From: Bdellovibrionales bacterium | GTDB taxonomy: Bacteria > Bdellovibrionota > Bdellovibrionia > Bdellovibrionales > UBA1609 | Reading direction: 5' to 3' | Assembly (NCBI GenBank): GCA_963692945.1 | Contig: OY843585.1 | Coordinates: 1,500,001-1,532,000, forward strand | Length of the DNA: 32,000 bases | Shown: positions 3,758 to 22,109 of the stretch, piece after piece | Numbering within the stretch: position 1 is the stretch's first letter | Layout of the letters: every line of letters begins with the position of its first letter | The notes under the pieces: generated by a model | Told to the model about the DNA's origin: nothing | Databases searched by the model: none | Seen by the model: only the letters and a program-made list of their open reading frames with translations | Position numbers and translations under genes: made by a program

Positions 3758-3774
3758 ACCCTTACCTAATCATT

Positions 3775-5262: not shown

Positions 5263-5354
5263 AGAAGGCTTTTATTTTATAGTTTTTAAAAAAAATTTCT
5301 AGCTTTTTATAAAAATTATATCTCTTAAACTCTTTTTTATATATAATAACTCAC

Positions 5355-6476: not shown

Positions 6477-6480
6477 ATTT

Positions 6481-7560
6481 ATGTATCGTTACTCTGATAT
6501 AAAAGCAGTTCATTTAGAAATCACCTCAAAATGCAATGCCTCTTGCCCTATGTGCTTAAGAAATATATCTGGTGGAAGTACAAACCCTCAACTTCCTTTA
6601 ACAGAACTTTCTTTAAAAGACATCCAACAAATATTTCCTATATCTTTTATTCAACAACTCAACAGGATATATATGTGTGGCAATTATGGAGACCCTATGA
6701 TTGCTAAAGACACTTTAAAAGTTTTTCAGTTTTTTAGAGAAACCAATAAAAATTTAAATCTTTCTATGTTCACAAATGGATCTGGAAGAACAAGAGATTG
6801 GTGGAAGAATCTAGCAAAAGTTATTGATCTTGTCCATTTCAGTATTGACGGTTTAGAAGATACAAATGCTATCTATAGACGAGGAACACATTTTAAAAAA
6901 ATCATGCAAAGTGCTGAAAGTTATATTTCTGCTGGAGGTGATGCCGTTTGGGATTTTATTGTTTTTGAACACAATGAACATCAAATAGAAGAGGCACAAA
7001 AATTATCTCAAAAAATGGGATTCTCTCAATTTATTACAAAAAAGACTGGTCGTTTTTATAGCAATCAAAAATCAAAAGTAAAAACAGAACAATCTGTTTT
7101 AAATTCTAAAAAAGAAATAGAATATTATTTAAGAAGTCCTAAAAATAAAAAATATCAAAATAAATCTCTTCAAAAAGAAGAAGAGTTATCTAAAAAATAT
7201 GGCAGTATTTCTAATTATCTCAATCAAACTCCTATTGAATGTCGTGTTCAAAATGAAAAAAGTATTTATATCAGTGCTGAATCTTTTGTTTTCCCCTGTT
7301 GTTGGACTGCCAATCAACTTTATCCTTGGTATTTTAAAAAAAGGTCTAGTCCTATATGGAATCTTATAGATGAACTCCCTCAAAAAGAACTAAGTCTTTC
7401 TTCAAAAGAAACATCTATTCAAAAAATTGTTGAAGGAGATTTTTTTCAAAAATCAATTCCAAGTAGCTGGTTAGGAAAAAATATTGAAGAAGACAGATTA
7501 AAAGTTTGTGCTAAAACTTGTGGAAAAGAATTCACTCCGTTTTCTGACCAATTCAAATAG
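6481..7560 (+). CDS. Radical SAM enzyme with a C-terminal SPASM/twitch-like Cys-rich domain
   Basis: Contains EITSKCNASCPMC (CxxxCxxC) and CGNYGDPM. The C-terminus has C-x18-CC-WTAN (7297-7314) and KVCAKTCG. The start is 4 nt after the stop of the previous gene. Confidence 0.75.
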   Translation: MYRYSDIKAVHLEITSKCNASCPMCLRNISGGSTNPQLPLTELSLKDIQQIFPISFIQQLNRIYMCGNYGDPMIAKDTLKVFQFFRETNKNLNLSMFTNGSGRTRDWWKNLAKVIDLVHFSIDGLEDTNAIYRRGTHFKKIMQSAESYISAGGDAVWDFIVFEHNEHQIEEAQKLSQKMGFSQFITKKTGRFYSNQKSKVKTEQSVLNSKKEIEYYLRSPKNKKYQNKSLQKEEELSKKYGSISNYLNQTPIECRVQNEKSIYISAESFVFPCCWTANQLYPWYFKKRSSPIWNLIDELPQKELSLSSKETSIQKIVEGDFFQKSIPSSWLGKNIEEDRLKVCAKTCGKEFTPFSDQFK

Positions 7561-7634
7561 AGTAAAAAATAGGGATATGAAACTAATGATTATCTTTATA
7601 GTTTTTTTAGTATAAAAAAAGAGATTTTAATTCA

Positions 7635-8312
7635 TCAATTTTCTATTTTTTCTTTAAAATCAGATAAAAAACCATCCATACTTTTATGTTTTGATATCAT
7701 AGAACCATACACTTCTCTATAATTTCTGATAAGATTCAGATCAAGTACTGTAACACTAAATATTTTATAAACACTTTCTTCCTCTAAAATACCTAACTTT
7801 ACTTCTATTGGTTCTCTGTCTTTAAGAGTTACAAAACCAGAAACACTATGTATAGTTTTGTTTTTTCTTGTGGTAGTATTAACTTTAAATTTAATAAGAG
7901 TATTATCAATTGTATCTTTTGATATATCTTTCATTTGAGAATTTACTGTTCGCACCATGACTATTTCAAGATATGTACAAAATTCTAGAAACTGATCTTC
8001 ATTAAATTTTCTAAAATGTTTAGCAAGAACAAGTTTACAGATTTTTTTAGTACCAAAATATTTTCTACTCAATTCTATTAATCCCTCTTCTCGCTCTTTA
8101 ACAGATAGTTTTTGAGTTTCTAGAGAATTAAGAAAGTTAAAAGATTCATCTATAAAAGAATTTACAAAATCTTCAGGGCTTTCATAAGTTGGCTGCTTTG
8201 TTTCAACAACAGCTTCAGATAAAACATTAGAAGTTTCAACAACAACTTCCTGAGCTTGAACAAAAAACCCTTGCATTGAAAATAGAGATAGGAAAAATAA
8301 CTTTTTAAACAT
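7635..8312 (-). CDS. MlaC/Ttg2D-like periplasmic lipid-binding protein (secreted)
   Basis: The signal peptide is MFKKLFFLSLFSMQGFFVQA. YFGTKKICKLVLAKHFRKFNEDQFLEFCTYLE and the C-terminal YKIFSVTVLDLNLIRNYREVYGSMI match the MlaC-family layout (compare WKVYDV-VEGVSLV-NYR). No mlaDEF genes are adjacent. Confidence 0.55.
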   Translation of the reverse strand: MFKKLFFLSLFSMQGFFVQAQEVVVETSNVLSEAVVETKQPTYESPEDFVNSFIDESFNFLNSLETQKLSVKEREEGLIELSRKYFGTKKICKLVLAKHFRKFNEDQFLEFCTYLEIVMVRTVNSQMKDISKDTIDNTLIKFKVNTTTRKNKTIHSVSGFVTLKDREPIEVKLGILEEESVYKIFSVTVLDLNLIRNYREVYGSMISKHKSMDGFLSDFKEKIEN

Positions 8313-8613
8313 TAACGCCTCTTTATCATGTAATAATATATATTTTAACCTTCTTTTTCAAATCAAAAATAACCCTAAGTGAATTTTTTACATTAAAAAT
8401 ATATCAATTTGTTCCACAAATGTAAATAAAATGAACGAATGGTCATTAAAACGTCATTTGCAATGAATATTTTTCTGCTTCTCCGTTATGATATACAAAA
8501 TTCATAACATTTATTGTTTCAGTCCACACAATCTATTAAATATTTGCTAATTCAATTACAATATCTACTATTTTATATAGTCTTTCTTTTTTATGAATTT
8601 TTATTAACTTTGA

Positions 8614-9156
8614 TCAAAAGAAGAGTATTATGTCGACTGATATATCTGATATTTTATAGCCATCTTTTCTTTTTACAACCACTAAGCTTAAACCAGCTCG
8701 GGGTGGCGATTTACCTTTAATAGTTTTCTTAAAAACTGGTTTAATGTAGCCAGTAAGAGTATAAATTTTACTATCTACATTCACGATGGACTGTGATACT
8801 ACAAGATCCTCAACAACTAAATCTGTAGCACTTGAAGCTATTTTTTTTAAGGATCCAAGACTGCGCAAAACTCTTTCATATTTCTCTTCTATGTCTGATT
8901 CTATATTTTCATACAATATGGCTTTCATTTTTTCCATATCAAAGGTTTCATCATCAAAATAGGCTCTAATTATTGCCATATAATCTTTATTTCTCTCTTT
9001 CACCAATTCTTTTACTTTACCTTTTTTAAACCTATCAACAAATGAAGTTAAAAATGATGATGTAAATTTTCTAATATTTTTATCAGTTCTTTCCTTACTC
9101 GGAGCACAAGATACTGACATTAACAAAATAGATATTAAGAATAATTTTTTAAACAT
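8614..9156 (-). CDS. Secreted protein, probably a lipoprotein; short MlaC-like paralogue (duplication copy 1)
   Basis: The signal MFKKLFLISILLMSVSC has a Cys at a lipobox-like position. The blocks SSFLTS, YFDDETFDM, LTGYI and KRKDGYKISDISV are shared with the 9590-10138 product. An AAGGAG RBS lies upstream. Confidence 0.6.
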   Translation of the reverse strand: MFKKLFLISILLMSVSCAPSKERTDKNIRKFTSSFLTSFVDRFKKGKVKELVKERNKDYMAIIRAYFDDETFDMEKMKAILYENIESDIEEKYERVLRSLGSLKKIASSATDLVVEDLVVSQSIVNVDSKIYTLTGYIKPVFKKTIKGKSPPRAGLSLVVVKRKDGYKISDISVDIILFF

Positions 9157-9589: not shown

Positions 9590-10138
9590 TCAATTGAATA
9601 ATAAGGATACCATATTGACTGATATATCTGATATTTTATAACCACTTTTTCTTTTTACAATCTGTAAATTTAAATGAGGTCGGAGTGACTTATCTAGAGC
9701 AGGATTTCCAAGAACTTGAATATAACCAGTAAGAGCATAAACACTTCTATCATTATTCATAATGGACTTCCATGTTACAGGATTCTCAACAACTAAATTT
9801 GTAGCTCCTTCCTTTGAACTCTCTCTACTGATCCATGTTAAAGAGCTCACCTGATAAAGAACTCTTTTAGTTTTACTTTTTATTTTGTCAAGTTCAGTAG
9901 ATTTAATAGCTTCAAACATTTCATCCATATCAAAAGTTTCCTCATCAAAATAGGTTCTAACTATTTCCACTGCATTCTTTCCTCTTTCCAATTTGTTCCT
10001 ATGACCTTTAAAGTTATCAAATACTGAAGTTAGAAATGAAGATGCAAATTCTCTAAGATCTTCATCAACTTTTTTCTCAACTGAAAATGCAGATGCTGAC
10101 ATTAACAAAATAGATATTAAGAATAATTTTTTAAACAT
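9590..10138 (-). CDS. Secreted short MlaC-like paralogue (duplication copy 2)
   Basis: The signal is MFKKLFLISILLMSASA/FS, with no lipobox Cys. It shares the conserved blocks of the 8614-9156 product and is otherwise strongly diverged. A GGAGGGAG RBS lies upstream. Confidence 0.6.
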   Translation of the reverse strand: MFKKLFLISILLMSASAFSVEKKVDEDLREFASSFLTSVFDNFKGHRNKLERGKNAVEIVRTYFDEETFDMDEMFEAIKSTELDKIKSKTKRVLYQVSSLTWISRESSKEGATNLVVENPVTWKSIMNNDRSVYALTGYIQVLGNPALDKSLRPHLNLQIVKRKSGYKISDISVNMVSLLFN

Positions 10139-10181
10139 GGCTCCCTCCTTTTTTTTAAAATCACCACTTTAATTGGGTTAG

Positions 10182-10208
10182 AGTTTACCCCCCCCCATTT
10201 TTTGTCAA
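10182..10208 (-). promoter_or_regulatory. Candidate promoter with a G9 homopolymer in the spacer (copy 2)
   Basis: The minus strand reads TTGACA aaaaat GGGGGGGGG TAAACT, a 15-nt spacer. The poly-C on the plus strand is at 10188-10196, about 50 nt upstream of ATG 10138. Confidence 0.35.
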
Positions 10209-10293
10209 TATTAAAATTCATAAATTTATTTTTAATGAAAATTTTTCATTTATATAGATAGATACAGGACAAAATAACCCTCTTCTCCCATCC

Positions 10294-11481
10294 TTAATCT
10301 ATATAATCATAGATGTAATTCAAAAAAGCCAATAAATGATTTGAAGTTCCACTCAACATTTTTCCATTAATAAAAAAAGCAGGTGTTCCAGGAATATCTG
10401 CTTTAGCTCCTACCTCAGCCATTTCCTTAACTAGTTGTTTTGTTTTAGAACTTTCTATGCATTTAAAAAAATTTTGAGAATCAAGATTCACAGTTTGCAC
10501 CATATTTTTTAAATGTTCAGCGATTTTATCTTTATCAGCTTGAATACTTCTAAATGAAGCTTGCTTTTTAAAAATAAAATCATGAACAAGCCATCCCTTA
10601 CCTTGCTGTTTTGCACAGATAGCTGCTCTACTTAAAATACAAGTTAAACCTGTTCCTCTAAACGATATGATATCGTTGCATGTTTTATCTAAAGGAAAAA
10701 CATAAAAATGAAAAGAAACATCTGGATGATTTTTTAAAAAACTTTTTAAAGCAGGTTGAACTTTTTTACAACTAGGACACATAAAATCAGCAAATTCCAC
10801 AATAGTCATTTTAGATTTGTTAGAACCTGATTTTAAAAGTGGAGGTTTTGAAAAATGAAACACCTCTTCATGTTCCCAATCCAACAAAAGAGCTTCAAAT
10901 TGTTCAACATTATCTTTAATACCAAAATTCACTACAAAAATCATATGTAGAAAAAAAGAAATAACTAAAATAAAAGACCCTAAATAAATACCACTTTTTT
11001 CCCGAACAGAATGAAGGATAACTTTTGTAAAGGACGTGTTTAAAACATCTTTTCTAAAAACCCAAAATAAAGAAGCAAAAGCCACAAAAGACAACAAATA
11101 AGTTATCCAACAGAGAGGACAATAAAGTCTTTCTAAAAAAGAGATAGCCATCATAACTAAAGAAGTAAAAGCAATGAATCCAGACAGATAAACAGAGATT
11201 ATTTTCCAATAAGATGTTTTAAAAAATCCCCATAAGAAAAAAAGTAAAAGGAAAGAAAGGCTGAAATTAAAACCAAATCCAAAATTAGACAAAGAGACAT
11301 TAAAAACTTTAGAATAAGGTGATAGTAAGGCTGAATCACAGTTGATTGTTTCACTGATATTACAAATAGCACTTGCTTGAGCCACACCGGCTGTGAGCTG
11401 GTAGGAACGGTTGGTCAGATAAAAATGTATACAACTTGAAATAAGAGCAGCTACAAAGGCTAAAATGATCCATTTCCTCAT
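10294..11481 (-). CDS. VKOR (vitamin K epoxide reductase homologue) fused to a DsbA/thioredoxin-like domain; disulfide-bond formation
   Basis: The N-terminal half is polytopic membrane. It has the loop cysteines CNISETINC followed by SPYSKVF, and the membrane CxxC LYCPLCW, which together are VKOR signatures. The C-terminal half has the DsbA-type FADFMCPSCKK and GTPAFFINGK. Confidence 0.8.
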   Translation of the reverse strand: MRKWIILAFVAALISSCIHFYLTNRSYQLTAGVAQASAICNISETINCDSALLSPYSKVFNVSLSNFGFGFNFSLSFLLLFFLWGFFKTSYWKIISVYLSGFIAFTSLVMMAISFLERLYCPLCWITYLLSFVAFASLFWVFRKDVLNTSFTKVILHSVREKSGIYLGSFILVISFFLHMIFVVNFGIKDNVEQFEALLLDWEHEEVFHFSKPPLLKSGSNKSKMTIVEFADFMCPSCKKVQPALKSFLKNHPDVSFHFYVFPLDKTCNDIISFRGTGLTCILSRAAICAKQQGKGWLVHDFIFKKQASFRSIQADKDKIAEHLKNMVQTVNLDSQNFFKCIESSKTKQLVKEMAEVGAKADIPGTPAFFINGKMLSGTSNHLLAFLNYIYDYID

Positions 11482-11564
11482 ACTATTTCTTTACTCAATA
11501 AAAGATCATTATGCAAAAGTTTTTTCTTGTTTTCAATCAACACTATAAGTAATAATAACTTAAA

Positions 11565-13277
11565 ATGTCTTTTTCTATCAAAGATCAAGGGTCTTTCTCA
11601 CAAATTAAAAAAGAACTCGCTTCTTCTCTCTCTCAAATTCTAAACTTAGAAGAAAAAGACATTTACTCTCATTTAGAACAACCTATTCAAAAAAAACATG
11701 GTCATTTAGCCCTACCTATATTCCCTTTTTCCAAGCTAAAAAAACAAAACCCAAAAGAATTGGCTGAAGAAATGGCTTTACAAATTAAAAAGAAAAAACC
11801 ACCTACTTTAGAAACCATTGAAACAATTTCTGGTTTCATTAACTTCCATTTTAAGAAAAATTATATAAAATCTCATCTAGAAAAACTTCTCTCTAAAAAA
11901 AATCTAGCCTTTTTTAAAAATTCCAATCAGGAACATTGGGTTATAGATTTTGCTTCTCCCAATGTGGCGAAATACATGAATATAGGACATTTAAGAGCAA
12001 CCGTGATAGGTCAAGCTCTTGTTAATCTATCTCGTCAGTTTGACCATAAAGTCACAACACTGAATCATTTAGGAGATTGGGGAAGTCAATTTGGAAAACT
12101 TTTATGGGCTTATCAAAAATGGCACAAAGAATATGACTTTGAACACAATCCTTTTGAAACTCTTGTTAAACTTTATGTAAGATTTCATAAAGAAGCAGAA
12201 CAAGATCCTAAAAAATTAAAACAAGCTACAGATTTATTTCAAAAATTAGAAGTAGGAGATTCTGTTTTAGAAAAACTTTGGGAAAAATTTGTGGACTTAT
12301 CTTTAAAAAATTATGACAAATACTGGAAATACCTCAATGTAAAACATGATTTAGTCTTAGGAGAATCTTTTTACAGAAAATTTACAGAAGATTTAAAATC
12401 TCGTTTAAAGAAAAAAAATCTACTAGAAAAAAGTGAAGGTGCAGAGGTTGTATTTTTAGAGGATACACCTCCTTGCCTCATTATAAAAAGTGATGGAGCT
12501 TCCACTTATGGAGCAAGAGATTTATCCAGTGCCATTTACAGATTTGAAACTTTAAAAGCTGATAAAAATATTTACATCACAGGAACAGATCAAAAACTTC
12601 ATTTTAAACAAATTTTTCAAACTTTAAAAAAGATGGAGATTCCGAGTGAAAACTGTTTGCATTTATCTTTTGGTATGTATCGCTTTAAGGGTGAAGGTAA
12701 AATGTCCACAAGAAAGGGACAATCTATTTATTTAAAAGATGTCATTCAACAAGCCATTGAAAGAGTACAAAAAATTATTGAAGAACGAAGACCTCAATTA
12801 GACAACAAAGATAAAATTGCGAAACAAGTTGGTATAGGAGCCATTGTATTTAATGATTTGATTAATGACCGTATCAAAGATGTAGATTTTGATTGGAATA
12901 AAGTTTTGGATTTTGAAGGAAACTCTGGCCCCTTTGTTCAATACACCCATGTTCGCTGCCTCAGTTTATTAAAAAAAGTAAAAGGTGATATAAAAAAAAC
13001 ATTTTCTAAAGAACCTTTCACAGAAGAAGAAATGAATTTAATTTGGTTGCTTCTTATCTTTGAAGAATCTGTCTTGCAATCTTTTAAACATTTCAAACCA
13101 CATATTTTAGCAAGGTATCTCTTAGATTTATCTAGAGGGTTCAATCGCTTTTATGCTTCGGAACGCATTTTGGATTCAAATAGAAAAGAAGATCTTATCC
13201 TCCTTGTTGACACTGTTCGTCGCATTCTTCATAAAGGACTGAGTATTTTAAATGTACCAACTCCTTCAGCCATGTAG
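11565..13277 (+). CDS. argS: Arginine--tRNA ligase
   Basis: A 570-aa protein. It has the class-I HIGH-region FASPNVAKYMNIGHLRATVIG, GDWGSQFG, the KMSK-equivalent GKMSTRKG, an anticodon-binding DALR-type C-terminus, and ends in ...PSAM. Confidence 0.9.
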   Translation: MSFSIKDQGSFSQIKKELASSLSQILNLEEKDIYSHLEQPIQKKHGHLALPIFPFSKLKKQNPKELAEEMALQIKKKKPPTLETIETISGFINFHFKKNYIKSHLEKLLSKKNLAFFKNSNQEHWVIDFASPNVAKYMNIGHLRATVIGQALVNLSRQFDHKVTTLNHLGDWGSQFGKLLWAYQKWHKEYDFEHNPFETLVKLYVRFHKEAEQDPKKLKQATDLFQKLEVGDSVLEKLWEKFVDLSLKNYDKYWKYLNVKHDLVLGESFYRKFTEDLKSRLKKKNLLEKSEGAEVVFLEDTPPCLIIKSDGASTYGARDLSSAIYRFETLKADKNIYITGTDQKLHFKQIFQTLKKMEIPSENCLHLSFGMYRFKGEGKMSTRKGQSIYLKDVIQQAIERVQKIIEERRPQLDNKDKIAKQVGIGAIVFNDLINDRIKDVDFDWNKVLDFEGNSGPFVQYTHVRCLSLLKKVKGDIKKTFSKEPFTEEEMNLIWLLLIFEESVLQSFKHFKPHILARYLLDLSRGFNRFYASERILDSNRKEDLILLVDTVRRILHKGLSILNVPTPSAM

Positions 13278-13317
13278 TGCATTTGTGAAATCAATATTTT
13301 TTTGTTATAAGTAGTCC

Positions 13318-14814
13318 ATGAAAAAGCACCACTTAAGAGTTTACTCCTCTAAAGAGAATCTTCCTAAGGAAGAGCAACTGGCATGGAAACTAGCCCAAGT
13401 CGCTCTTGACCCCGCGTCTATTTCCCAAGAGGTCAAAGATATGGTTATCAATCGTATTATTGATAATGCTTCAGTGGCTATAGCCTCTATTCATCGTAAT
13501 CCTGTTTTACATGCCAGAGAGCAGGCTTTAGGACATTTGGTAAAAAAAGGAGCGACTCTTTTTGGTGTTGATAATAAATATCAGTTTAGTGCAGAGTGGA
13601 GTGCTTGGGCTAATGGAACGGCTGTGAGAGAGTTAGATTTTCACGACACCTATTTAGCAGCTGACTACTCTCACCCAGCAGATAATATTCCCCCTATTTT
13701 AGCAGTGGCTCAACAAACAAGACAAAATGGAAAAAAATTATTGGAAGCTCTAGTTGCTGCTTATGAAATTCACATCAGTTTAGTCAAAGCCATTTGTCTC
13801 CATAAACACAAAATAGACCACATTGCTCATCTCTGCCCAGCTCAAGTCGCAGGCTTAGGTGTTTTATTAAAAATGAGTCCTGAACGACTCTATCAAGCCA
13901 TACAACAGGCTGTTCATGTTTCTTTCACCACTCGTCAATCCCGTAAAGGAGAAATCTCTAGTTGGAAAGCTTATGCACCTGCTTTCTCTGGAAAAATGGC
14001 TATTGAATCGATTGACCGTAGCCTTCGTGGAGAAAATTCCCCCTCTCCTATTTATGAAGGGGAAGATTCTGTGATCGCTTGGATGTTGGATGGCTCTCAA
14101 GCTTCCTATGAAGTCCCTCTTGTTGAACAAGGAGAAGAAAAAAGATCTATTTTAGAATCCTACACAAAAGCTCACTCCGCAGAATATCAATCCCAAGCTC
14201 TCATTGATCTGGCTTTTGAGCTGAGAGAAAAAATCAAAGATTTTTCTCAAATCAAGGAAATTACAATACACACATCCCACCACACTCATTATGTGATTGG
14301 AACAGGAGCTGGCGATCCTCAAAAAATGAATCCAAGATCTAGTCGGGAAACTTTAGATCACAGTATTATGTATATTTTTGCTGTGGCTTTAGAAGACGGG
14401 AAATGGCATCATATTGATTCTTACACAAGGCAAAGGGCTACAAAAGACAGTACTGTGCGGTTGTGGCAAAAAATTAAAACCTGTGAAGAAGAAATATGGA
14501 CAAAACGCTACCATGACCCTGACCCACAATCTCGCTCTTTTGGTGGACGAGTGGAGGTGAAACTTCAAGATAATAGTTTGATTACGGGTGAGAAAAAAGT
14601 GGCTGACGCTCATCCTAATGGTAAAAAGCCTTATACCAGAAAAGATTATATCCATAAATTTAAAACTCTAACGGATTCTTTGATTTCTAAAAAAGAAAGC
14701 GAAAGATTTTTAAATTTAGTTCAGGACTTAGAAAAACTAACAACAGATCAAATTTGTGAATTGAATGTGCAAGCAGGATTGCCTATTGTTTCTAAAAGTA
14801 AAGGTATTTTTTAG
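13318..14814 (+). CDS. prpD: MmgE/PrpD family protein (2-methylcitrate dehydratase-like)
   Basis: A 498-aa protein whose full length resembles PrpD: VINRIIDNASVAIAS, ELDFHDTYLAADYSHPADNI, AHSAEYQ and the C-terminal HPNGKKPYTRKDYIHKF. No prpB or prpC is nearby, so the exact activity is uncertain. Confidence 0.75.
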   Translation: MKKHHLRVYSSKENLPKEEQLAWKLAQVALDPASISQEVKDMVINRIIDNASVAIASIHRNPVLHAREQALGHLVKKGATLFGVDNKYQFSAEWSAWANGTAVRELDFHDTYLAADYSHPADNIPPILAVAQQTRQNGKKLLEALVAAYEIHISLVKAICLHKHKIDHIAHLCPAQVAGLGVLLKMSPERLYQAIQQAVHVSFTTRQSRKGEISSWKAYAPAFSGKMAIESIDRSLRGENSPSPIYEGEDSVIAWMLDGSQASYEVPLVEQGEEKRSILESYTKAHSAEYQSQALIDLAFELREKIKDFSQIKEITIHTSHHTHYVIGTGAGDPQKMNPRSSRETLDHSIMYIFAVALEDGKWHHIDSYTRQRATKDSTVRLWQKIKTCEEEIWTKRYHDPDPQSRSFGGRVEVKLQDNSLITGEKKVADAHPNGKKPYTRKDYIHKFKTLTDSLISKKESERFLNLVQDLEKLTTDQICELNVQAGLPIVSKSKGIF

Positions 14815-15100
14815 TTTAACATGAAAATTCTTTTTAATCTATTGATGAACTAAGAGATTATTAACTGACAAAAATATTTTTTATAATGTCTAAAAAAGGC
14901 TAAAAACAATTTTACTAACTATTCATAAATTAAAAAAATCATTTTTATAAATGTAAAGTATTATCTTTGAAGTTTTAATAGTTGCAAAGTTAGATTTGAA
15001 AGAGTAATTTATTTGCTTTTGCGTCATAACAGAAAAATACATTCTTTTCATTTTTTTATAAATTTGGAATAATAATTGCATACTACATGCAGAGGGCTTC

Positions 15101-15685
15101 ATGACGAAAAAAATGATTTATAAAATTTATAAACAAATTACATTTTATCACAAAAAATATTTAAAACAATGTGGTGTAAATCTCCCAAAATTAAAAAACA
15201 ACACAGGTTCTTATACAAAAAATGCCTTAATATTGATTTATTTAAGCCAAGATTACCCTAATACAAAAAAAGTAACAAAGCAGGAATTAACTCAATTCAT
15301 AAGAAAATATTATCCTAATGTAAATGATGTTCAACAAGCAAGACACTTAGGAGCACAACAAGGATGGTGGATTGCGGCAGGAGGAAGAGATAATATTGTT
15401 GTGTCTTTAAAGATAGGAGAATATCAGATTTATACATTGAAAGAACCTTATCCTGGTTTTACAAGAAATAAAAGACAAACAAGCATTTCTAGTTGGGATG
15501 ATATAAAAAAGTATTATTCTTATAGATGTGCAACTTGTGGTTCCAAAGAAAATGAACCTCATTTTCATTGGCCAAAAACAAAAACAAAATTACAGAAAGG
15601 TCACAAAAATCCTGAAAAACCTTTAACTAAACAAAATATTATACCTCAATGTCAAAAATGCAATAGAGCAGATAGAAATAGGTGA
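15101..15685 (+). CDS. HNH (beta-beta-alpha-Me, zinc CxxC...CxxC) endonuclease, putative type II restriction enzyme; possibly C-terminally truncated
   Basis: The C-terminus is YRCATCGSKENEPHFHWP...KGHKNPEKPLTKQNIIPQCQKCNRADRNR, an HNH motif flanked by two CxxC pairs. The gene lies immediately upstream of a DNA methyltransferase. The frame stays open past the TGA at 15683 up to 15829 (see findings). Confidence 0.6.
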   Translation: MTKKMIYKIYKQITFYHKKYLKQCGVNLPKLKNNTGSYTKNALILIYLSQDYPNTKKVTKQELTQFIRKYYPNVNDVQQARHLGAQQGWWIAAGGRDNIVVSLKIGEYQIYTLKEPYPGFTRNKRQTSISSWDDIKKYYSYRCATCGSKENEPHFHWPKTKTKLQKGHKNPEKPLTKQNIIPQCQKCNRADRNR

Positions 15686-15825
15686 GTTTATGACAATAAA
15701 GGAAGAGTCATTAAGCTTGCGAATGCAGATGTATTGAAAAGCTGTTCCAAGTCTGTGCAAAAAAAAACTTATAGAATTTTATATAAAAAATATAAAGGCA
15801 TACACCCCAATAAAATGAGTAAAAA

Positions 15826-16809
15826 ATGAAAAAATACATAAATAAAATTATTCATGATGACTCTCTCAATTTCTTAACAAAATTAAAAGATAACTCTATA
15901 GATATTATACTGACAGATCCTCCTTATTTTTTGGATAAAATGGATCATAAATGGAGTACAAAAAAAGTAAAAAGCCCTAAAAAACCTTATGCTATAAAGC
16001 ACCTACCAGCAGGTATGAAATTTAATAAAGAACAGGGAAAAGTTTTTTATTCTTGGTATCTTAAAATATCAAAAGAATTTTTTAGAGTTTTAAAACCAGG
16101 AGGTTTTTTCTTTTCCTTTTCTAGCCCTAGACTCTATCATAGAATGACCTGTGCTATTGATGACGCTGGATTTGAGATAAGAGATTGTTTTATATGGCTC
16201 TATACACAAAATCAACCTAAAGCGATGAGTCTTCATCATTTTATCAATAAAATGAATAAGTCTAAAAAAGAAAAAGAAAAATTAAATAGACAATTTAAGG
16301 AATGGAAAACTCCACAAGTAAAATCTTGTCACGAACCAATTGCAATGGCTCAAAAGCCCTTAAAAGGAACTTATCTGGAAAATTCAATGAAATACAATGT
16401 GTCTTTAATTAACACAAATATAAAACAAGGACTCCATAAGGATATGTTTGTATCAAATATCATAACAAATGAACTTATTAACCATAGAATAGATAAAGTT
16501 TTTTTAGTGGATAAACCAAAAAAAAATGAAAAAGGATTGTTTAACAATCATAAAACAGTTAAACCTTTATCCCTGTTTAAGTATCTAATTAGTTTAACTA
16601 CAAAGAAAAACAGTATAGTTTTAGATCCATTCACAGGAAGTGGTACAACTGCTGTAGCTTGTAAAGAACTTGGCCGAAAATTCATCGGAGTGGAAATCAA
16701 TAAGCAATATATTGATATTGCCACTAAAAGATTAAATACTTTAAAAGTAAAAAAAGAAAAAAAGAAACAAGAATCTATCTCAGAACAAAGAGAACTTTTT
16801 ATGATCTAA
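15826..16809 (+). CDS. DNA methyltransferase, beta-class (N6-adenine or N4-cytosine; DPPY suggests N6-A)
   Basis: Motif IV IDIILTDPPYF is near the N-terminus. Motif I LDPFTGSGTTAVACKELGRKFIGVEI is near the C-terminus. This is the permuted beta-class order typical of the N6_N4_Mtase family. Confidence 0.85.
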   Translation: MKKYINKIIHDDSLNFLTKLKDNSIDIILTDPPYFLDKMDHKWSTKKVKSPKKPYAIKHLPAGMKFNKEQGKVFYSWYLKISKEFFRVLKPGGFFFSFSSPRLYHRMTCAIDDAGFEIRDCFIWLYTQNQPKAMSLHHFINKMNKSKKEKEKLNRQFKEWKTPQVKSCHEPIAMAQKPLKGTYLENSMKYNVSLINTNIKQGLHKDMFVSNIITNELINHRIDKVFLVDKPKKNEKGLFNNHKTVKPLSLFKYLISLTTKKNSIVLDPFTGSGTTAVACKELGRKFIGVEINKQYIDIATKRLNTLKVKKEKKKQESISEQRELFMI

Positions 16810-16922
16810 TATTTACTTGAAGTAAAATCTAGTATATTATAGTTTAAAAATAAGGCTGTTTATTAATTACGAGATGAGTAAAAAATAATTAAGGTGTGGA
16901 CATCGCGACAAGGCATTAATGA

Positions 16923-18782
16923 ATGAACTCTAATATAGTAAATAGGCATGAAATTCTTGTAAATTTAGCTCTTTTTGAAAGTATAAGACAAGAACAACCT
17001 AATATTTTTTATTTAGATCATTTTGTCTTATTAATGCTATCTTTGCTTTCAAAAAAAAACCAAGTTAGTAATACAGAAATCCAAAAACTTTTTCAAGAAA
17101 ATCTATCTATGAAAATACCTTTAGTATCTGTAAATAAAATTGCTAAAAAAGCTGTTGAAAAAGGCTACTTTCAATTAAACAAAAATAATCATAAAAATAG
17201 TCAACTTCATAAAATTTATACTTTGAAAATTGAAAAGATACAAAAACAAAACAAAAAATTCAATACATTAAAAGATAAAATTAAAACATCTCAAGAAAAT
17301 TTTTATCGAAGATTTAAAAAGTTTATCAAAAATAAATATAAACTTGATATTGATTTAGTTAAATGCAAGAAGTTGTTCTATATTCATTTTCTTAAAAACT
17401 ATAAAGATATTCAAAATGTAGAATACCCTATAAGTCAAAATATTTATAATGAAAATTATGTAGTAAATGATTTTATTCGTTATTTATATGAAAATCAAAA
17501 CAACGAACTTTTAAAATGCTTAGAACAAATAATTAGAGGTAATTGGGTTTCAAATTATTTATTTATGTGGAAGAATGATGCTCATAAAGGAAATTTAAAG
17601 GGAGTTAAAGTTTTTTTTGACACACCACTTATTATATCCTTGTTAGGATTTAATGGTGAGTTTTCAAAAAAAATCACTAAGGAATTATTAGATTTACTTC
17701 ATAAACTCGGAGCTAAAACTTATATTTTTTCTCATAATATTGAAGAAACAAAAATTCTATTGAAGGGATGGGCAGAAGCTGTTAAGCAACAAAATTTTAA
17801 ATACATGAGATTATCAACTATTGAAGAAATTCGTGACAAAGATTATAACTATCAAGACTTAGAAAATTTATCAATTAGAATCAAAAATAATTTATATAGT
17901 TTAAAAATTGAAGAAACTAAAGTTAGAATCAAAGATGAATACAGAATTTCTGAACAAAAGCTTGAAGATAGTATTTCTCATGAAGAAAGTAATTATACAG
18001 GCAAGAAGGTCCATATCGATATAGAAAGTGCTGCATCTATCTTTTCTTTAAGACTAGGATGTCCAACTTTAAATATAACAGATAGACCTTATATTTTTGT
18101 TTCATCTACATTCAAAGTGGTAAATAATATAAATAATTTTTTTAATGACGATTATAATGAGGACAATCCTAAAAATATTCCTATTTTTGTAATGGATAAA
18201 TGGCTTACGAATTTATGTTGGCTCTTGAGTCCTAAACAATCCACTCTTCCAAGAGATTTTTTGGTAGCACACAGTTATGCATCATTAAATACATCGGATA
18301 AGGTTTGGGAAGATTTTAATAAATTTTTAGAAAAATATGAAAAACAACCAGAAATTACAAGTGAAGGTTTAGATGCTATTCGATATGAAAAAGATTTTAA
18401 AAGTTGTGTTGAAGAATATGCCGTTCTCAAAGGAACTATTAAACAAAAAAATATCCCAGATATCATTAAAGAAGGAAGAAAGAAGATATATAAAAACTAC
18501 GAACTAAAAAATAACAAATTAAAATCCGAAAATAAAATATTTAAAGAACGTTCTAAAAAACTCTCTAATATAATGGCTCATACAATTACAGTATCTATAT
18601 CTATAATAATTTTAGTAATAGTTCTTTTTTTCATTTATTATTTGAAAGATACTAAATACTGGTTTTGGGTAGCAATATTAGTTACAATAACTACTAGTGG
18701 TTTTGGTATTAAATATCCATATAAAAAGATACAGAATTTCATATATAAAAAAATATCCAATTATTTATGGAAATCCATATAA
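16923..18782 (+). CDS. Hypothetical 619-aa protein: putative N-terminal wHTH, central PIN-like region, two C-terminal TM helices
   Basis: This is a long ORF in the AT-rich island, downstream of the R-M pair. VKVFFDTPLIISLLG (D233), IFSHNIEET, HIDIESAASIF (D366) and YIFVSST resemble the acidic-residue pattern of PIN-like nucleases; this is inference only. Hydrophobic helices ITVSISIIILVIVLFFIYYL and YWFWVAILVTITTSGFGI lie at ~18580-18715. Confidence 0.5.
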   Translation: MNSNIVNRHEILVNLALFESIRQEQPNIFYLDHFVLLMLSLLSKKNQVSNTEIQKLFQENLSMKIPLVSVNKIAKKAVEKGYFQLNKNNHKNSQLHKIYTLKIEKIQKQNKKFNTLKDKIKTSQENFYRRFKKFIKNKYKLDIDLVKCKKLFYIHFLKNYKDIQNVEYPISQNIYNENYVVNDFIRYLYENQNNELLKCLEQIIRGNWVSNYLFMWKNDAHKGNLKGVKVFFDTPLIISLLGFNGEFSKKITKELLDLLHKLGAKTYIFSHNIEETKILLKGWAEAVKQQNFKYMRLSTIEEIRDKDYNYQDLENLSIRIKNNLYSLKIEETKVRIKDEYRISEQKLEDSISHEESNYTGKKVHIDIESAASIFSLRLGCPTLNITDRPYIFVSSTFKVVNNINNFFNDDYNEDNPKNIPIFVMDKWLTNLCWLLSPKQSTLPRDFLVAHSYASLNTSDKVWEDFNKFLEKYEKQPEITSEGLDAIRYEKDFKSCVEEYAVLKGTIKQKNIPDIIKEGRKKIYKNYELKNNKLKSENKIFKERSKKLSNIMAHTITVSISIIILVIVLFFIYYLKDTKYWFWVAILVTITTSGFGIKYPYKKIQNFIYKKISNYLWKSI

Positions 18783-18940
18783 ATTATATTTCTCTTTAAG
18801 GAATTTAATTCTTTGCACATATAAGACGTAAGAAATCATCTCATTAAAAGAATGCTTTTTTACATCTTATCACTTAGGGAATTGTGATGCAATTACAGAC
18901 ACAGGACTTGTAAGACTAATGAAATCACATCTTAAAAAAT

Positions 18941-20875
18941 CTAATTCAAAATAATGGTTATTGTTTTACTAGGAGGTATAGGCTCTCCTGCAAAAGGGAT
19001 GGTTCTTATAACACGATTGGAACCATAAATTTTTAAATTCAATCCTTTGTTTTGAACCTTGCTCAACACTTCCCTTAAAGTTAAACCCTTAAGATTAGGG
19101 ATTTGATTGGCAAAGGCTAAAGTTCGCTCTACCTTTTGTTCTTTCTTATTATTTTGAGCTAAAATAAAATCCTTTTCTTTAAACAAAATAGGAGAAAGAC
19201 CTGCTTTACGAACAGCATAGGAAGACACTTTAGAAAACACAGGTGCCGCAAGAGTGGAAGCGTAAAAATTGTCTTTTGCTCCATCAATAACAACATAAAC
19301 TACATATTTTGGTTTATGAGCAGGTATAAAACCTATAAAACTTGAAATGTATTCTGAATCCTTATAACCACCTTTTTCTAAATCCACTTTTTGAGCCGTC
19401 CCTGTTTTTCCTGCTGTTAAATAACCAGGGACAACAGCTTGAAATCCTGTTCCGTTTTCTTCAGTTACAGACGTCAACATAAGAGTGATGGTTTGAGCTT
19501 CATCTTCTTCTAAAACTTGGCGAATCACTTCTTCTTTAAAAACTTTCTCTTCTCCGTTGTAAGGATTTCTAATTTGTTTAATCATCCTAGGTCTCTTTAA
19601 AAAACCTCCATTGGCAATAGATGCATAAGCATTAGCCACTTGTAAAGCCGTGCTAGATACTCCATGACCAAAACTAATAGTTGCTGTTTCAATAGGTCTC
19701 CAAGGTAGTTTTCGTAACTTTCCTTTAGATTCTCCTTGAAATGCAATTCCTGTTTTTTGACCAAAACCAAAACTGGATAGAGATCTTCTTAACTTTTCAG
19801 CTCCAATATCAATAGCCATCACAGAAGCACCTATATTAGAAGAATAAGATAAAATTTCTGTCATATTTAAAAACGGATCAAACTTTTTTTTGACTTCTGC
19901 CTCTTTAATAATTTTTCCTCCTATATGAAATTTTCCATTATGAGTGAAATATTTTTTACTAGGAGCAAGACCAGATTGAATAGCAGAAATAACAGTAAAA
20001 GTTTTTAAAACACTTCCTGGTTCAAAAACATCAGTGATAACACGATTCCTTCTGTCATTTTTATTTTCCACTTTATTGGGATAATTAGGATCATAATTAG
20101 GGACATTAATCATGGCTAAAACTTCGGAATTATCAACAGATAAAACCAAACCCATGGCCGACTCAGCCTTAGACAAACGAACGGCTTTATAAAGTTCTTT
20201 TTCAAAATAAAATTGAAGGTCACTGTCTATTGTAAGATAGACATCAAAACCACTCACTTGACTAATAAAAGGTGTAAAGTCAGCAAATAAGGGACGCCCT
20301 CTAGCATCTCTTTTAACTAAAACTCTCTGTTCTTCCCCTTGTAAAATGTCATCATACTTTTTTTCTATACCTTCCAAACCATGACCATCAATATCTGTAA
20401 AACCAAGAACTTGAGACAAAGAATCTCCTTTTGTATAAAATCTTTTAGATTCTTTAATAAAATGGATACCTTCAAATTTAAAAGACTTTACCATTTTCAC
20501 TTCTTGTGCTGTTAGATGTCTTTTGAGCCACATAAATCTTCTTTTTTTATTCAGTAACTTTGAAAGAATTTTTTTTCTTGATAGTTTTAGGGAAGAAGAT
20601 AATTTTTTAGCGATATAATAAGGTTCTTTCACTTTATAAGGATCAGCAAAAAGAGATTGAGAAGATGTAGAAATGGCCAACTCCTTACCATAACGATCAT
20701 AAATAACTCCTCTTCTTGGAGTGACTTTGACTGTTGTTTCAAACAATCTTTCTTTCAATTGAGTGAGTCGATCTTGAGGAAATAACTGTAAAGAAGCACT
20801 TCTTATTATAAGGATACAAAAACTAAGTCCTATAAAATACATTACAAAAAGCATTCTATGTTTTATCAGTTTCAT
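18941..20875 (-). CDS. ftsI: Peptidoglycan D,D-transpeptidase FtsI (PBP3) with a C-terminal PASTA-like domain
   Basis: It has an N-terminal TM anchor, SxxK (EPGSVLKTF), SxN (YSSNIGA) and KTG (AGKTGTAQK). The C-terminal IPNLKGLTLREVLSKVQNKGLNLKIYG is PASTA-like. It follows ftsL and rsmH. Confidence 0.9.
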   Translation of the reverse strand: MKLIKHRMLFVMYFIGLSFCILIIRSASLQLFPQDRLTQLKERLFETTVKVTPRRGVIYDRYGKELAISTSSQSLFADPYKVKEPYYIAKKLSSSLKLSRKKILSKLLNKKRRFMWLKRHLTAQEVKMVKSFKFEGIHFIKESKRFYTKGDSLSQVLGFTDIDGHGLEGIEKKYDDILQGEEQRVLVKRDARGRPLFADFTPFISQVSGFDVYLTIDSDLQFYFEKELYKAVRLSKAESAMGLVLSVDNSEVLAMINVPNYDPNYPNKVENKNDRRNRVITDVFEPGSVLKTFTVISAIQSGLAPSKKYFTHNGKFHIGGKIIKEAEVKKKFDPFLNMTEILSYSSNIGASVMAIDIGAEKLRRSLSSFGFGQKTGIAFQGESKGKLRKLPWRPIETATISFGHGVSSTALQVANAYASIANGGFLKRPRMIKQIRNPYNGEEKVFKEEVIRQVLEEDEAQTITLMLTSVTEENGTGFQAVVPGYLTAGKTGTAQKVDLEKGGYKDSEYISSFIGFIPAHKPKYVVYVVIDGAKDNFYASTLAAPVFSKVSSYAVRKAGLSPILFKEKDFILAQNNKKEQKVERTLAFANQIPNLKGLTLREVLSKVQNKGLNLKIYGSNRVIRTIPFAGEPIPPSKTITIILN

Positions 20876-20894: not shown

Positions 20895-21197
20895 CTAATC
20901 TATAATCAAAGCTTTTCCATCTATAACTTGTATAATCTGACCTTTTTTCTTTTCATTTAAAGAACCTTTTTTAGCCAAATTCTCTAATCGGTCTGTTCGC
21001 ATAACACGACCATACTCCCTTAAATTAAAATAGTATTCGTCTTGTATCCGATCAAACTTCCTATTCTCCTGATATAAAGAATAACTCAATCGTCTTAAAG
21101 TGATCTTGAAGAAAGCCGTCAAAAATAAAAATAAAATGATTAACAAAATACTGTAAAAAGGTTTTACACCTTTTTTTAAACCTTGTCTCCCTAACAT
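20895..21197 (-). CDS. ftsL: Cell division protein FtsL-like
   Basis: A 100-aa bitopic protein with the TM segment FYSILLIILFLFLTAFF followed by a coiled region. It sits between rsmH and ftsI. Confidence 0.6.
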   Translation of the reverse strand: MLGRQGLKKGVKPFYSILLIILFLFLTAFFKITLRRLSYSLYQENRKFDRIQDEYYFNLREYGRVMRTDRLENLAKKGSLNEKKKGQIIQVIDGKALIID

Positions 21198-21200
21198 TTT

Positions 21201-22109
21201 TTACCCCTTAACAAATATTCTCAACTTCGCACTACGACTTCTAGGATTAGACTGCCTCTCTTTTGAAGAAGGTCGTATCACTTTTTTATTACCCAATTGA
21301 CCTTCCCCTTGAAGAACAAAGTTTTTAAAACCTCTCTTAACTATACGATCTTCTAAAGAATGGAATGTCACAACAATAAGATAAGCTCCTGTTTTTAAAA
21401 TAGGCAGAAAAGATGGCAAACTTTTTTCTAACCCCTCTAGTTCTTGATTTACAAACATACGAAGAGCTAAAAAATAGGGTGTGGCAGGATGACGACCTGA
21501 AAAACCACGAGAGATATGCTTTTGTATCACATTCACCAACTCCCTTGTTGTCTCAAATTTCTTTTTTTGTCTTTCCTTAAAAATAGAGTCTACAACAGCA
21601 AAAGGTCGCTTGATCTCTCCATAATGACAAAATAAATCTTCTAAATCTTTTTTTGAAAAACTATTAATCACATGAGCTGCTGTTAATTTTTGTTCTCTAT
21701 CCATACGCATATCTAAAGGACCATCTTGATAAAAACTAAATCCCCTTTCGGCTTGATCTAATTGAGGAGAGCTTACTCCTAAATCCACTAAAATAATATC
21801 AAATAACCTGGATTGAGAGTGTTGTTTTGAAAAATCATGAAAATTGATTTTTAAAAATTCAATTTGATCTTCAACCCCTAAAGATTTTCCATACTTTATA
21901 GCTTCCTCATCTCTATCTAAAGCCAAGATTTTTAATTTTGGATATTTTTTTAAAAAAGCTAGAGAATGACCTCCTCTTCCAAAAGTACAATCTAAAGCGG
22001 TTTGAGGAGCAAAATCATCTGGAAAAAAAGACAACATGTCAGACAATAAAACAGGGGTATGTTTATTATTTTGAGTGTCTAGATTTTGCTTTTTAGAATC
22101 TATTTCCAT
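21201..22109 (-). CDS. rsmH: 16S rRNA (cytosine1402-N4)-methyltransferase
   Basis: HTPVLL, DCTFGRGGHS, VDLGVSSPQLD, GPLDMRM and FHSLEDRIVK are canonical RsmH/MraW motifs. Confidence 0.9.
   Translation of the reverse strand: MEIDSKKQNLDTQNNKHTPVLLSDMLSFFPDDFAPQTALDCTFGRGGHSLAFLKKYPKLKILALDRDEEAIKYGKSLGVEDQIEFLKINFHDFSKQHSQSRLFDIILVDLGVSSPQLDQAERGFSFYQDGPLDMRMDREQKLTAAHVINSFSKKDLEDLFCHYGEIKRPFAVVDSIFKERQKKKFETTRELVNVIQKHISRGFSGRHPATPYFLALRMFVNQELEGLEKSLPSFLPILKTGAYLIVVTFHSLEDRIVKRGFKNFVLQGEGQLGNKKVIRPSSKERQSNPRSRSAKLRIFVKG

Follow-up and report, generated by a model that had tools for sequence, protein, structure and literature searches.

A candidate membrane-anchored PIN-like nuclease with a winged-helix head, encoded at a variable site of a Bdellovibrionales genome

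A stretch of 32,000 nucleotides from the genome of a Bdellovibrionales bacterium (contig OY843585.1, positions 1,500,001 to 1,532,000; in the following called the window) contains a gene at positions 16923-18782 of the plus strand that encodes a protein of 619 amino acids (aa), composed of a predicted winged helix-turn-helix (wHTH) head, a PIN-like core and two C-terminal transmembrane helices. We propose that this protein is a self-contained, membrane-anchored PIN-like metallonuclease which, as the product of a single gene, confers immunity to phages and other invading DNA, a candidate reading for which we see about an even chance. Taken separately, the PIN fold of the core is very probable, its catalytic activity is likely, and a role of the protein in biological conflicts is at least as likely. 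As a new single-gene anti-phage system the gene is a strong candidate.

The gene is real. It starts with ATG, its coordinates include the stop codon, and it is recovered by the list of open reading frames (ORFs), its translation, full-length homologues and the AlphaFold2 model; the frame is full-length and conserved across thousands of relatives. A preliminary description of the window had given the ORF exactly so, and had called its product an orphan, which did not hold: the homologues number in the thousands, and what they lack is only an annotation. The same description had suggested a nuclease-like core with a head and a membrane anchor, acting in defence. This interpretation is supported, because each computational test that was proposed along with it came out in its favour, the PIN assignment, which is based on models, being weakly scored.

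The PIN-like core and its invariant acids

The central part of the protein (residues 225-436, positions 17595-18230; this and all further features of the gene lie on the plus strand) is assigned as a PIN-like alpha/beta nuclease core by structure models, Foldseek, BFVD and Pfam. An AlphaFold2 model of the full-length protein, calculated from a 42-sequence alignment, has a mean pLDDT of 86 and a pTM of 0.78, and a domain-only model of residues 218-505 has a pLDDT of 80.6, with values above 90 over the core. Both models contain the core strands 229-232, 265-269, 329-332, 390-394 and 422-424, and helical insertions are found between beta2 and beta3 and also after beta3. The modelled core appears to have the five-stranded alpha/beta/alpha build of the PIN fold, its five strands alternating with helices.

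With the full-length model as query, Foldseek lists members of the PIN superfamily, namely HARP (7og5), PAE2754 (1v8o), AF1683 and FEN1/Exo1. The domain-only model also has members of this superfamily as its top matches, with probabilities of 0.7-0.94 and target TM-scores of 0.51-0.58. They include PAE2754 (1v8o; E 0.07, probability 0.94, target TM-score 0.54-0.57), HARP (7og5; probability 0.93, target TM-score 0.57) and the VapC protein 7vwo of M. tuberculosis (probability 0.91, target TM-score 0.58), and further matches are PAE0151 (2fe1), Exo1, Utp24 and an RNA-decay PIN protein of K. lactis. Rossmann-type SDRs are present in the same list with probabilities of only 0.1-0.2. A BFVD search among viral models with the full-length protein retrieved a phage protein annotated as 'PIN like domain' (probability 0.96, 299 aligned columns), and also XPG/FEN1 enzymes. 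The structural check that had been proposed for the PIN-like core, AlphaFold2 followed by Foldseek, favours the PIN superfamily, albeit with weak scores.

A Pfam scan of 30 core-domain sequences was performed at a permissive threshold, and PIN (PF01850) was the sole family that was matched by more than one of them (four members). Positions 1-48/51 of the profile align with domain residues 13-73 in two relatives, in a register in which the profile starts at an invariant Asp following beta1 and the matched stretch also takes in an invariant Glu about 42 residues further on. The 619-aa protein itself has no match to the PIN-clan Pfam families, i.e., these profiles do not recognize its sequence as belonging to the superfamily.

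Conservation was counted among 155 family representatives, and three acidic residues were found to be invariant (155 of 155 each). The predicted first metal-binding acid is D233 (codon 17619-17621, verified) at the end of beta1 in the motif FFDT, the predicted second acid is E275 (17745-17747), 42 residues after D233 in the helix following beta2 in the motif FSHNIEE, and the predicted third acid is D366 (18018-18020) in the motif DIESAxxIFxLRxG, which also contains S369 and R377. The two aspartates had already been nominated in the preliminary description, and the short stretches that it had singled out have clear places in the model: VFFDTPLI covers strand beta1 and the subsequent D233, IFSHNIEET covers strand beta2 with H271 and E275 behind it, HIDIESAASIF carries D366, and YIFVSST is strand beta4. 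Directly after beta4, the codons 394-396 (18102-18110) occupy, as judged from conservation, the position of the PIN 'T-x-D'; they encode SST in the 619-aa protein and TTN in most relatives. Residue 394 is T or S in all 155 relatives, and residue 396 is N in 148 of them and Thr in the 619-aa protein. High conservation was also found for R377 and W433 (154 of 155 each), E254 (148), H271 (147) and S369 (138).

The resulting pattern, 'hhhDT' after beta1, a Glu in the helix after beta2, an Asp after beta3 and 'T-x-(D/N)' after beta4, is what we take to be the canonical VapC-type PIN arrangement with a replaced fourth acid. D233, E275 and D366 together are the predicted acids of a PIN active site, and PIN-like families with three acids have been accepted in a published classification (PMC5499597). 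Because the fold and the active site agree with the PIN superfamily while the sequence profiles fail, we regard the protein as a member of a new divergent PIN-like family, separate from PF01850 and from VapBC modules.

The comparison with known PIN enzymes underscores this. VapC-type PIN nucleases (PAE2754/1v8o, PAE0151/2fe1, 7vwo; PF01850) are the best structural match to the core and share its strand-then-acid motifs. However, VapC toxins are soluble proteins of about 130 aa that are paired with an antitoxin, whereas the 619-aa protein has several domains and no partner. With this length and domain composition, and without a conserved neighbour at 46 loci, it does not resemble a VapBC type II toxin-antitoxin system. 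In comparison to VapC its core is enlarged by helical insertions of about 100 residues, and outside the core it has a winged helix, two helical modules that VapC lacks, a stalk and a hairpin in the membrane, and in comparison to the PF01850 enzymes it stays below every Pfam PIN threshold and has an Asn or Thr in place of the fourth acid. The longest fold matches were obtained with HARP/PRORP-type and FEN/Exo1-type enzymes (7og5, 8kd9, 7e8j; 3qe9, 3q8m), with 217-224 columns and target TM-scores of 0.53-0.59, and these enzymes also have helical insertions in the PIN core. However, no sequence similarity with the 619-aa protein was detected, and they are soluble enzymes of housekeeping RNA or DNA processing, which do not share the accessory domains, the membrane anchor or the mobile-element context.

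Winged-helix head, helical modules and membrane hairpin

The N-terminal residues 1-101 (16923-17225) are predicted by the model, Foldseek and BFVD to form a wHTH. The model contains the helices 10-24, 30-41, 50-61 and 67-79 and the wing strands 83-85 and 98-101. A helix-turn-helix-like stretch had been noticed in the sequence before, and this stretch, residues 49-83, corresponds to the third and fourth of these helices and the first wing strand. Foldseek matches residues 1 to about 110 in the PDB with the winged helices of MarR, PadR, SarA, RosR, OhrR, BlaI and RTP (probability 0.96-1.0, target TM-score 0.46-0.67), and the BFVD search also retrieved winged-helix proteins. The family motif LAILKVN..D..DY is conserved in the head, and no Pfam family of HTH domains scored above threshold with the 619-aa protein or with 42 relatives. 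At the level of the modelled fold the head resembles the MarR/PadR-like winged helices, and its binding to DNA is only predicted.

Two helical modules flank the core. The first comprises residues 103-214 (17229-17564) and consists in the model of a long helix (103-139) that is followed by a helical bundle (145-160, 177-190, 194-214), with the near-invariant G206 (152 of 155 relatives). No structural or family match was found for this region, which might be a sensor or regulatory module. The second, defined by the model and by conservation, is a post-core domain of residues 440-505 (18240-18437) with the family motif LPRKRIIADCYAA...W...R. It contains the helices 442-454, 459-473, 480-488 and 490-503, and P443, A449, Y452, A453, W462 and R487 are highly conserved. 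The confidence for this domain falls to a low level when it is modelled without the rest of the protein.

The C-terminal part begins with a charged, coiled-coil-like stalk (residues 508-550, 18444-18572), which is rich in lysine and glutamate and differs in length among relatives. In the model the stalk continues straight into the first transmembrane helix, and a single helix covers residues 508-576. This transmembrane helix (residues 553-575, 18579-18647) was defined by hydropathy, with a 19-residue Kyte-Doolittle mean that peaks at 2.79 for residues 554-572, and it was found in all 42 relatives examined. The second transmembrane helix (residues 580-598, 18660-18716; model helix 580-593) corresponds to a second hydrophobic segment that nearly all 42 relatives share and that is weaker in the 619-aa protein. 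The two hydrophobic helices at the extreme C-terminus, which had been recognized in the preliminary description, are thus a recurrent feature of the family. In the 619-aa protein they form a hairpin with an outer loop of only a few residues, as would be expected of a two-helix membrane anchor, and are followed by a basic amphipathic helix with the sequence PYKKIQNFIYKKISNYLWKSI (residues 599-619, 18717-18779; model helix 597-618). Because basic residues flank both outer ends of the hairpin, both termini, and hence the whole enzyme, would be located on the cytoplasmic side.

A PIN-like domain and transmembrane helices in one protein are also known from COG4956/YacL (Matelska et al., 2017; PMC5499597). 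However, YacL-type proteins match PF01850, have four N-terminal transmembrane helices and a TRAM domain, and are conserved proteins of a housekeeping type (PMC5499597), whereas in the family described here the helices are C-terminal, a winged helix is present, TRAM and an above-threshold match to PF01850 are absent, and the gene is accessory.

Spread and genomic settings of the family

The size of the family became apparent when 1.84 billion cluster representatives (50% identity) were searched exhaustively by HMMER, with eight relatives as the basis of the profile; this search yielded 4,115 representatives at E<=1e-3 and 1,997 at E<=1e-30. The best 150 matches are nearly all full-length proteins of 600-690 aa. 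A word-indexed search of 5.8 billion proteins retrieved eight relatives only, five with about 52% and two with about 25% identity, and no further relatives were found when it was run with the 42-sequence profile. In species-representative genomes, no loci were found with the single 619-aa protein as query versus 55 loci with the main-clade alignment. The taxa belong to more than 15 phyla. Loci were found in Coatesbacteria, Chloroflexota, Elusimicrobia, Planctomycetota, Nitrospirae and Acidobacteriota, in Actinomycetota (several Arthrobacter), Paenibacillus, Gamma- and Deltaproteobacteria, Spirochaetota and Bacteroidota, and in the candidate-phyla-radiation lineages Moranbacteria, Saccharibacteria and Peribacteria. 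The family is very large, phylogenetically scattered and unnamed, and RefSeq labels the plasmid and Escherichia coli copies as "hypothetical protein".

The 619-aa protein has no meaningful match in Pfam, NCBIfam, PADLOC 2.0, PHROGs or the PDB sequences. A set of 42 diverse relatives matched nothing in Pfam save for a weak DUF2207_C match over the transmembrane region, and the 42-sequence profile had no match among the PDB sequences. The protein belongs to no PADLOC 2.0 system; a profile search of the PADLOC models remained without a match, in agreement with the preliminary statement that no described system fits. The combination of wHTH, PIN-like domain, stalk and C-terminal hairpin was not found described in the libraries or in text searches of the literature. 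PIN nucleases, winged helices and membrane anchors are each familiar in defence, and what appears to be new is their combination as a widespread single-gene module.

The neighbourhoods were analyzed at 46 loci with the two nearest genes on each side, and 141 proteins of at least 125 aa were compared by all-against-all BLAST. The largest cluster has four members among the 141 proteins, all tyrosine integrases; the gene has no conserved partner and travels alone. The most common Pfam families are Phage_integrase (4), N6_Mtase, N6_N4_Mtase, HsdM_N and NUDIX (3 each), and RE_TdeIII, Resolvase, AAA_21, SMC_N and AAA_30 were seen twice each. PADLOC models identified at least seven HsdM-like methyltransferases and four type IIG enzymes among the neighbours. 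Seven of these methyltransferases matched the PADLOC model 'mad2', and a link to the MADS system was considered and rejected; these proteins are ordinary HsdM-type methyltransferases of type I systems that score far better against MTase_I.

Annotated loci of close and distant homologues (L001 to L007) illustrate the settings. L001 contains a methyltransferase-Mrr fusion, a PD-(D/E)XK protein, transposases and an SMC-like ATPase, and L003 an Eco57I-like methyltransferase and an MmeI-type enzyme. L005/6 contain two type IIG enzymes and a resolvase, L007 an IS110 transposase and integrases, and L004 NYN and DprA-like genes. The two NYN-domain proteins of L004, which belong to a PIN-like branch, flank the homologue (3318-3989, minus strand; 7287-7913, plus strand), and one of them is immediately upstream with a gap of 88 bp. 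Both in L001 (10618-12143, minus strand) and in L004 (4455-5962, plus strand) a DprA-like gene (DNA_processg_A) is followed by an ORF of about 200 aa without a Pfam match, a few kb from the homologue, a layout that resembles the DprA-PRTase defence pair of P2 hotspots. L002, which carries a homologue with 52% identity, contains R.Pab1 with a methyltransferase, SIR2 and DUF87/HerA, and genes of a type IV secretion system (T4SS). Here the homologue is located between the SIR2_2 and DUF87 (HerA-like) pair (2577-6106, minus strand) and the transfer genes for TrbC and VirB4/TraG-like P-loop proteins (10050-15274, plus strand), and this arrangement points to an integrative conjugative element with several defence modules. 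The similar layout of L002 had also suggested a conserved three-gene unit of a small ORF, an ORF of about 300 aa and the 619-aa gene; the upstream proteins of L002 turned out to be unrelated, and the unit was rejected.

Plasmid copies were found in 12 of 72,556 plasmid records. On a plasmid of Enterococcus faecium the gene is located between copies of IS30 and IS256, beside resistance genes, and on a plasmid of Klebsiella quasipneumoniae between a replication gene and a recombinase/IS26. The copy on the Sporosarcina plasmid pSporoP37 is located between an integrase and a recombinase gene, about 1.2 kb from a CBASS operon, apparently of type II (L065, 9181-13521), which encodes a nucleotidyltransferase, a ThiF/E1-like protein, an MPN/JAB protein and SAVED and is one recombinase gene away. 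In line with the expectation of a defence neighbourhood, homologues were found near R-M genes, SIR2-HerA, CBASS, integrases and insertion sequence (IS) elements, on plasmids and in P2-like prophages, a result that is semi-quantitative.

Only two of 5,426 complete E. coli genomes carry a gene of the family, both inside P2-like prophages. In strain FDAARGOS_1337 it is located between the tail-sheath and the tail-fibre-assembly genes, and this gap is presumably the Z/fun variable locus of the P2 map. Residues 45-521 of the 619-aa protein align with the encoded protein, WP_204691543.1, with 25% identity (E 2e-41). WP_096936374.1 is likewise an E. coli prophage copy. The copy of strain MEI7BO1-21 (L066, 11166-11756) is part of a rearranged P2-like prophage remnant, between ogr (Ogr/Delta-like) and gpD and beside a Hok/Gef toxin gene. 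In P2-like phages, anti-phage genes are known from two variable loci, and many cargo systems of the gpA-gpQ locus have been validated (Rousset et al., 2022; PMC9122126). The likeness of the family to P2-like prophage cargo (old, tin, Z/fun, the systems of Rousset et al., 2022) consists in both E. coli homologues being such cargo. However, there is no homology with the validated systems and there are no matches to the PADLOC Rst_* models, and the hotspot that was studied systematically is gpA-gpQ (old/tin), not the tail-sheath/fibre-assembly position (PMC9122126).

In the window, the gene belongs to the cargo of a variable site, the interval argS/prpD-ftsI (11565-20875), which was compared across three related genomes. 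The backbone common to the three comprises VKOR-DsbA, argS, prpD, ftsI, ftsL and mraW. A search with the ArgS of the window gave its closest matches among proteins of Oligoflexia and Bdellovibrionales MAGs (57-61% identity). One related genome (L068, 10001-18095; ArgS 83% identical) has, in the gap from prpD to ftsI, three unrelated ORFs of 156, 496 and 160 aa, and another (L069, 10001-19866; ArgS 68% identical) has DUF8196, a 766-aa ORF and a 187-aa ORF between argS and prpD. Because the related genomes keep the backbone and hold different cargo in the gaps, the variable integration site of the window holds strain-specific cargo, namely the putative HNH endonuclease gene, the methyltransferase gene and the 619-aa gene. 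Other cargo genes at this site could be further unknown defence genes. The 619-aa gene converges on ftsI (18941-20875, minus strand) and is AT-richer than its surroundings, with a GC content of 0.22 for positions 17001-18000 compared to about 0.30 for the window. In a scan of the locus, promoter-like sites were not more numerous than expected from shuffled sequence, and terminator-like sites were not found.

Two neighbouring cargo genes, both on the plus strand, are not part of the proposed system. The first (15826-16809) encodes a type II N4/N6 DNA methyltransferase (Pfam N6_N4_Mtase, E 1.8e-40; PADLOC MTase_II, E 1.6e-53) and is separated from the 619-aa gene by 113 bp; its linkage to homologues is not conserved. 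The second (15101-15685), directly upstream of the methyltransferase gene, is an ORF of 194 aa without a match in Pfam and NCBIfam. Its C-terminal HNH-like (beta-beta-alpha-Me-like) motif CATCGS...H..H...N...CQKCN, i.e., CxxC...H..H...N...CxxC, and weak PHROG matches to endonuclease VII and HNH proteins (E 0.004-0.018) make it a candidate, and it probably encodes a small HNH-type restriction endonuclease of type II that has so far not been catalogued. The R-M pair that had been named as the neighbour of the 619-aa gene is accordingly well founded for its methyltransferase half, and its restriction half is plausible from sequence motifs, the weak HNH matches leaving it unproven.

The PrpD/MmgE gene of the same interval (13318-14814, plus strand) has a GC content of 0.38 versus about 0.30 for the window, and its best match is the NCBIfam 'high-GC Gram-positive' PrpD model (E 5e-234, below the cut-off of the model). 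It looks foreign by GC and is kept at the same position in two related genomes as part of the backbone, which suggests an old horizontal acquisition that does not belong to the islet. A fused VKOR-DsbA/thioredoxin protein of 395 aa (10294-11481, minus strand) adjoins argS in all three related genomes. The L069 genome (1.3 Mb) encodes several ankyrin-repeat and Sel1-repeat proteins around the syntenic region (5397-6958, 7814-8677, 21105-21716), which hints at a host-associated or intracellular life of a small-genome, low-GC Bdellovibrionota-like lineage.

Proposed function and alternatives

The reading as a membrane-anchored immunity nuclease combines the architecture with the genomic settings: genes of R-M systems or methyltransferases lie near the gene in the window, L001, L002, L003 and L005/6, and the family is carried on plasmids, at variable loci of prophages and in R-M/defence islands. 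In the proposed mechanism the hairpin would hold the whole enzyme at the cytoplasmic face of the inner membrane, and the three acids would bind Mg2+/Mn2+ and cleave nucleic acid. The winged helix and the helical modules may recognize nucleic acid or a phage protein and act as a gate for the nuclease. The tether would keep the nuclease away from the chromosome and near the entry point of foreign DNA, and the discrimination of self and non-self would be spatial, as in the unrelated SNIPE.

SNIPE joins a membrane anchor to a GIY-YIG nuclease and to DUF4041, which binds DNA (Saxton et al., Nature 2026; PMC13190303). Phage DNA is cut by SNIPE while it is being injected, and without its anchor the protein is toxic. 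SNIPE provides a tested model in which the tether guards against self-cleavage and holds the nuclease where DNA enters (PMC13190303). The likeness is one of logic only: a nuclease, a membrane anchor and a module that putatively binds DNA are joined in a single polypeptide, which occurs sporadically as defence-type cargo. SNIPE begins with a single-pass anchor at its N-terminus, continues with DUF4041 and ends in the GIY-YIG domain, whereas the family described here has a reversed order of non-homologous parts, and Pfam searches found neither DUF4041 nor GIY-YIG in the 619-aa protein or the 42 relatives. By analogy, a SNIPE-like model may be the most economical mechanism.

Several results weigh against the proposal. 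The assignment to the PIN superfamily is weak, being made at the level of a modelled fold with low statistics, and the clustering of the acidic residues and the PIN order of the strands are presumed. The Foldseek E-values of the PIN matches are poor (0.07-0.4) and the target TM-scores do not exceed 0.58, the best PF01850 match (E 0.0091) reaches 17 bits compared to a cut-off of 23.6 bits, and the fourth canonical PIN acid is an Asn in the family and a Thr in the 619-aa protein. With regard to immunity, the 619-aa protein had no match in PADLOC-DB 2.0.0 at E<=0.1, and 42 relatives had three isolated single-member matches, all with E>0.001. A tblastn search of 50,697 phage records with a main-clade protein and with the protein of the E. 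coli prophage found no homologue. The neighbour census is semi-quantitative, with naively called ORFs in high-GC loci and no matched genomic background, and many neighbours are housekeeping genes, e.g., for ribonucleotide reductase, Hsp70 and transhydrogenase.

An abortive-infection toxin would be a close variant of the favoured reading. A VapC-like RNase would be kept inactive through its membrane location or through the protein's N-terminal modules, and infection would free it to cut host and phage RNA; cleavage of tRNA, rRNA or mRNA would then arrest the cell, or, alternatively, the hairpin would oligomerize and damage the membrane. The closest structures include VapC toxins and RNA-processing PIN enzymes (PAE2754, VapC 7vwo, HARP RNase P, Utp24, Nmd4), the gene is single-gene cargo in defence and mobile-element settings, and the coiled-coil stalk and the hairpin could drive oligomerization. 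However, a conserved antitoxin-like partner is missing, the DNA nucleases Exo1/FEN1/XPG score similarly, and DNA binding is the more typical role of a winged helix. Some of the PIN enzymes among the structural neighbours act on RNA and others on DNA, and the substrate could be either. We regard this variant as unlikely, though worth keeping in mind.

Less probable still is a selfish function of the carrying mobile elements, i.e., the exclusion of rival plasmids or prophages, or an addiction or stabilization module. Such a function would fit the plasmid copies between IS elements and recombinases beside replication or mobilization genes, the copies inside P2-like prophages and a T4SS-bearing element, and the rank of integrases as the commonest neighbour family. 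Most copies, however, are chromosomal, beside R-M systems and without an evident element, and an antidote partner is missing. The distinction from defence is also not sharp, prophage and plasmid cargo at such sites being usually anti-phage (PMC9122126).

It is similarly improbable, or slightly more so, that the core is not a PIN domain but another Rossmann-like or phosphoesterase domain, and the protein a membrane-bound sensor or regulator with a winged helix that controls transcription. This alternative draws on the Foldseek E-values, all above 0.05, on the SDR and HAD folds in the Foldseek list, on the lack of any Pfam PIN model above threshold and on the missing fourth acid. Yet the probabilities for the PIN superfamily far exceed those for the SDRs, PIN is the only recurrent Pfam match and has the correct register, and the succession D...E...D...T-x-N after consecutive strands is the PIN pattern, while a single Asp after beta1 is at odds with the DxD motif of HAD enzymes. 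The presence in only two of the E. coli genomes is too rare for a housekeeping regulator. That the protein is a component of the adjacent R-M system, e.g., a regulator, a membrane-localizing subunit or a second nuclease of a three-gene unit, would agree with its position on the same strand directly downstream of the methyltransferase gene and with the R-M genes that often adjoin homologues, but is extremely improbable in view of the adjoining R-M types, which all differ (type I, IIG, MmeI-like, Pab1, TdeIII, Mrr fusions), of many copies without any R-M neighbour, of the unrelated genes directly upstream of the homologue in L002, and of the lack of a recurring neighbour family and thus of conserved linkage.

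The membrane-anchored immunity nuclease remains the reading that we favour, and the natural E. coli copies and the three invariant catalytic candidates make it directly testable. In its boldest form, which is doubtful and which we put forward tentatively, the family would be an unrecognized, widespread single-gene immune system that cuts phage or plasmid DNA on entry, and a second independent invention of the spatial strategy of SNIPE, for which alone this way of telling self from non-self has been shown so far. A nuclease-based single-gene defence would, as a kind, not astonish specialists by itself. If the proposal is true, the catalogue of bacterial immunity would gain a named and mechanistically interpretable member that has been missed by Pfam, NCBIfam and PADLOC, and the presence of the family on resistance plasmids of E. 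faecium and Klebsiella and in E. coli prophages could have an effect on phage therapy and on the spread of plasmids. The tethering of nucleases would then be a recurrent route to the discrimination of self and non-self that does not depend on reading a sequence or a modification.

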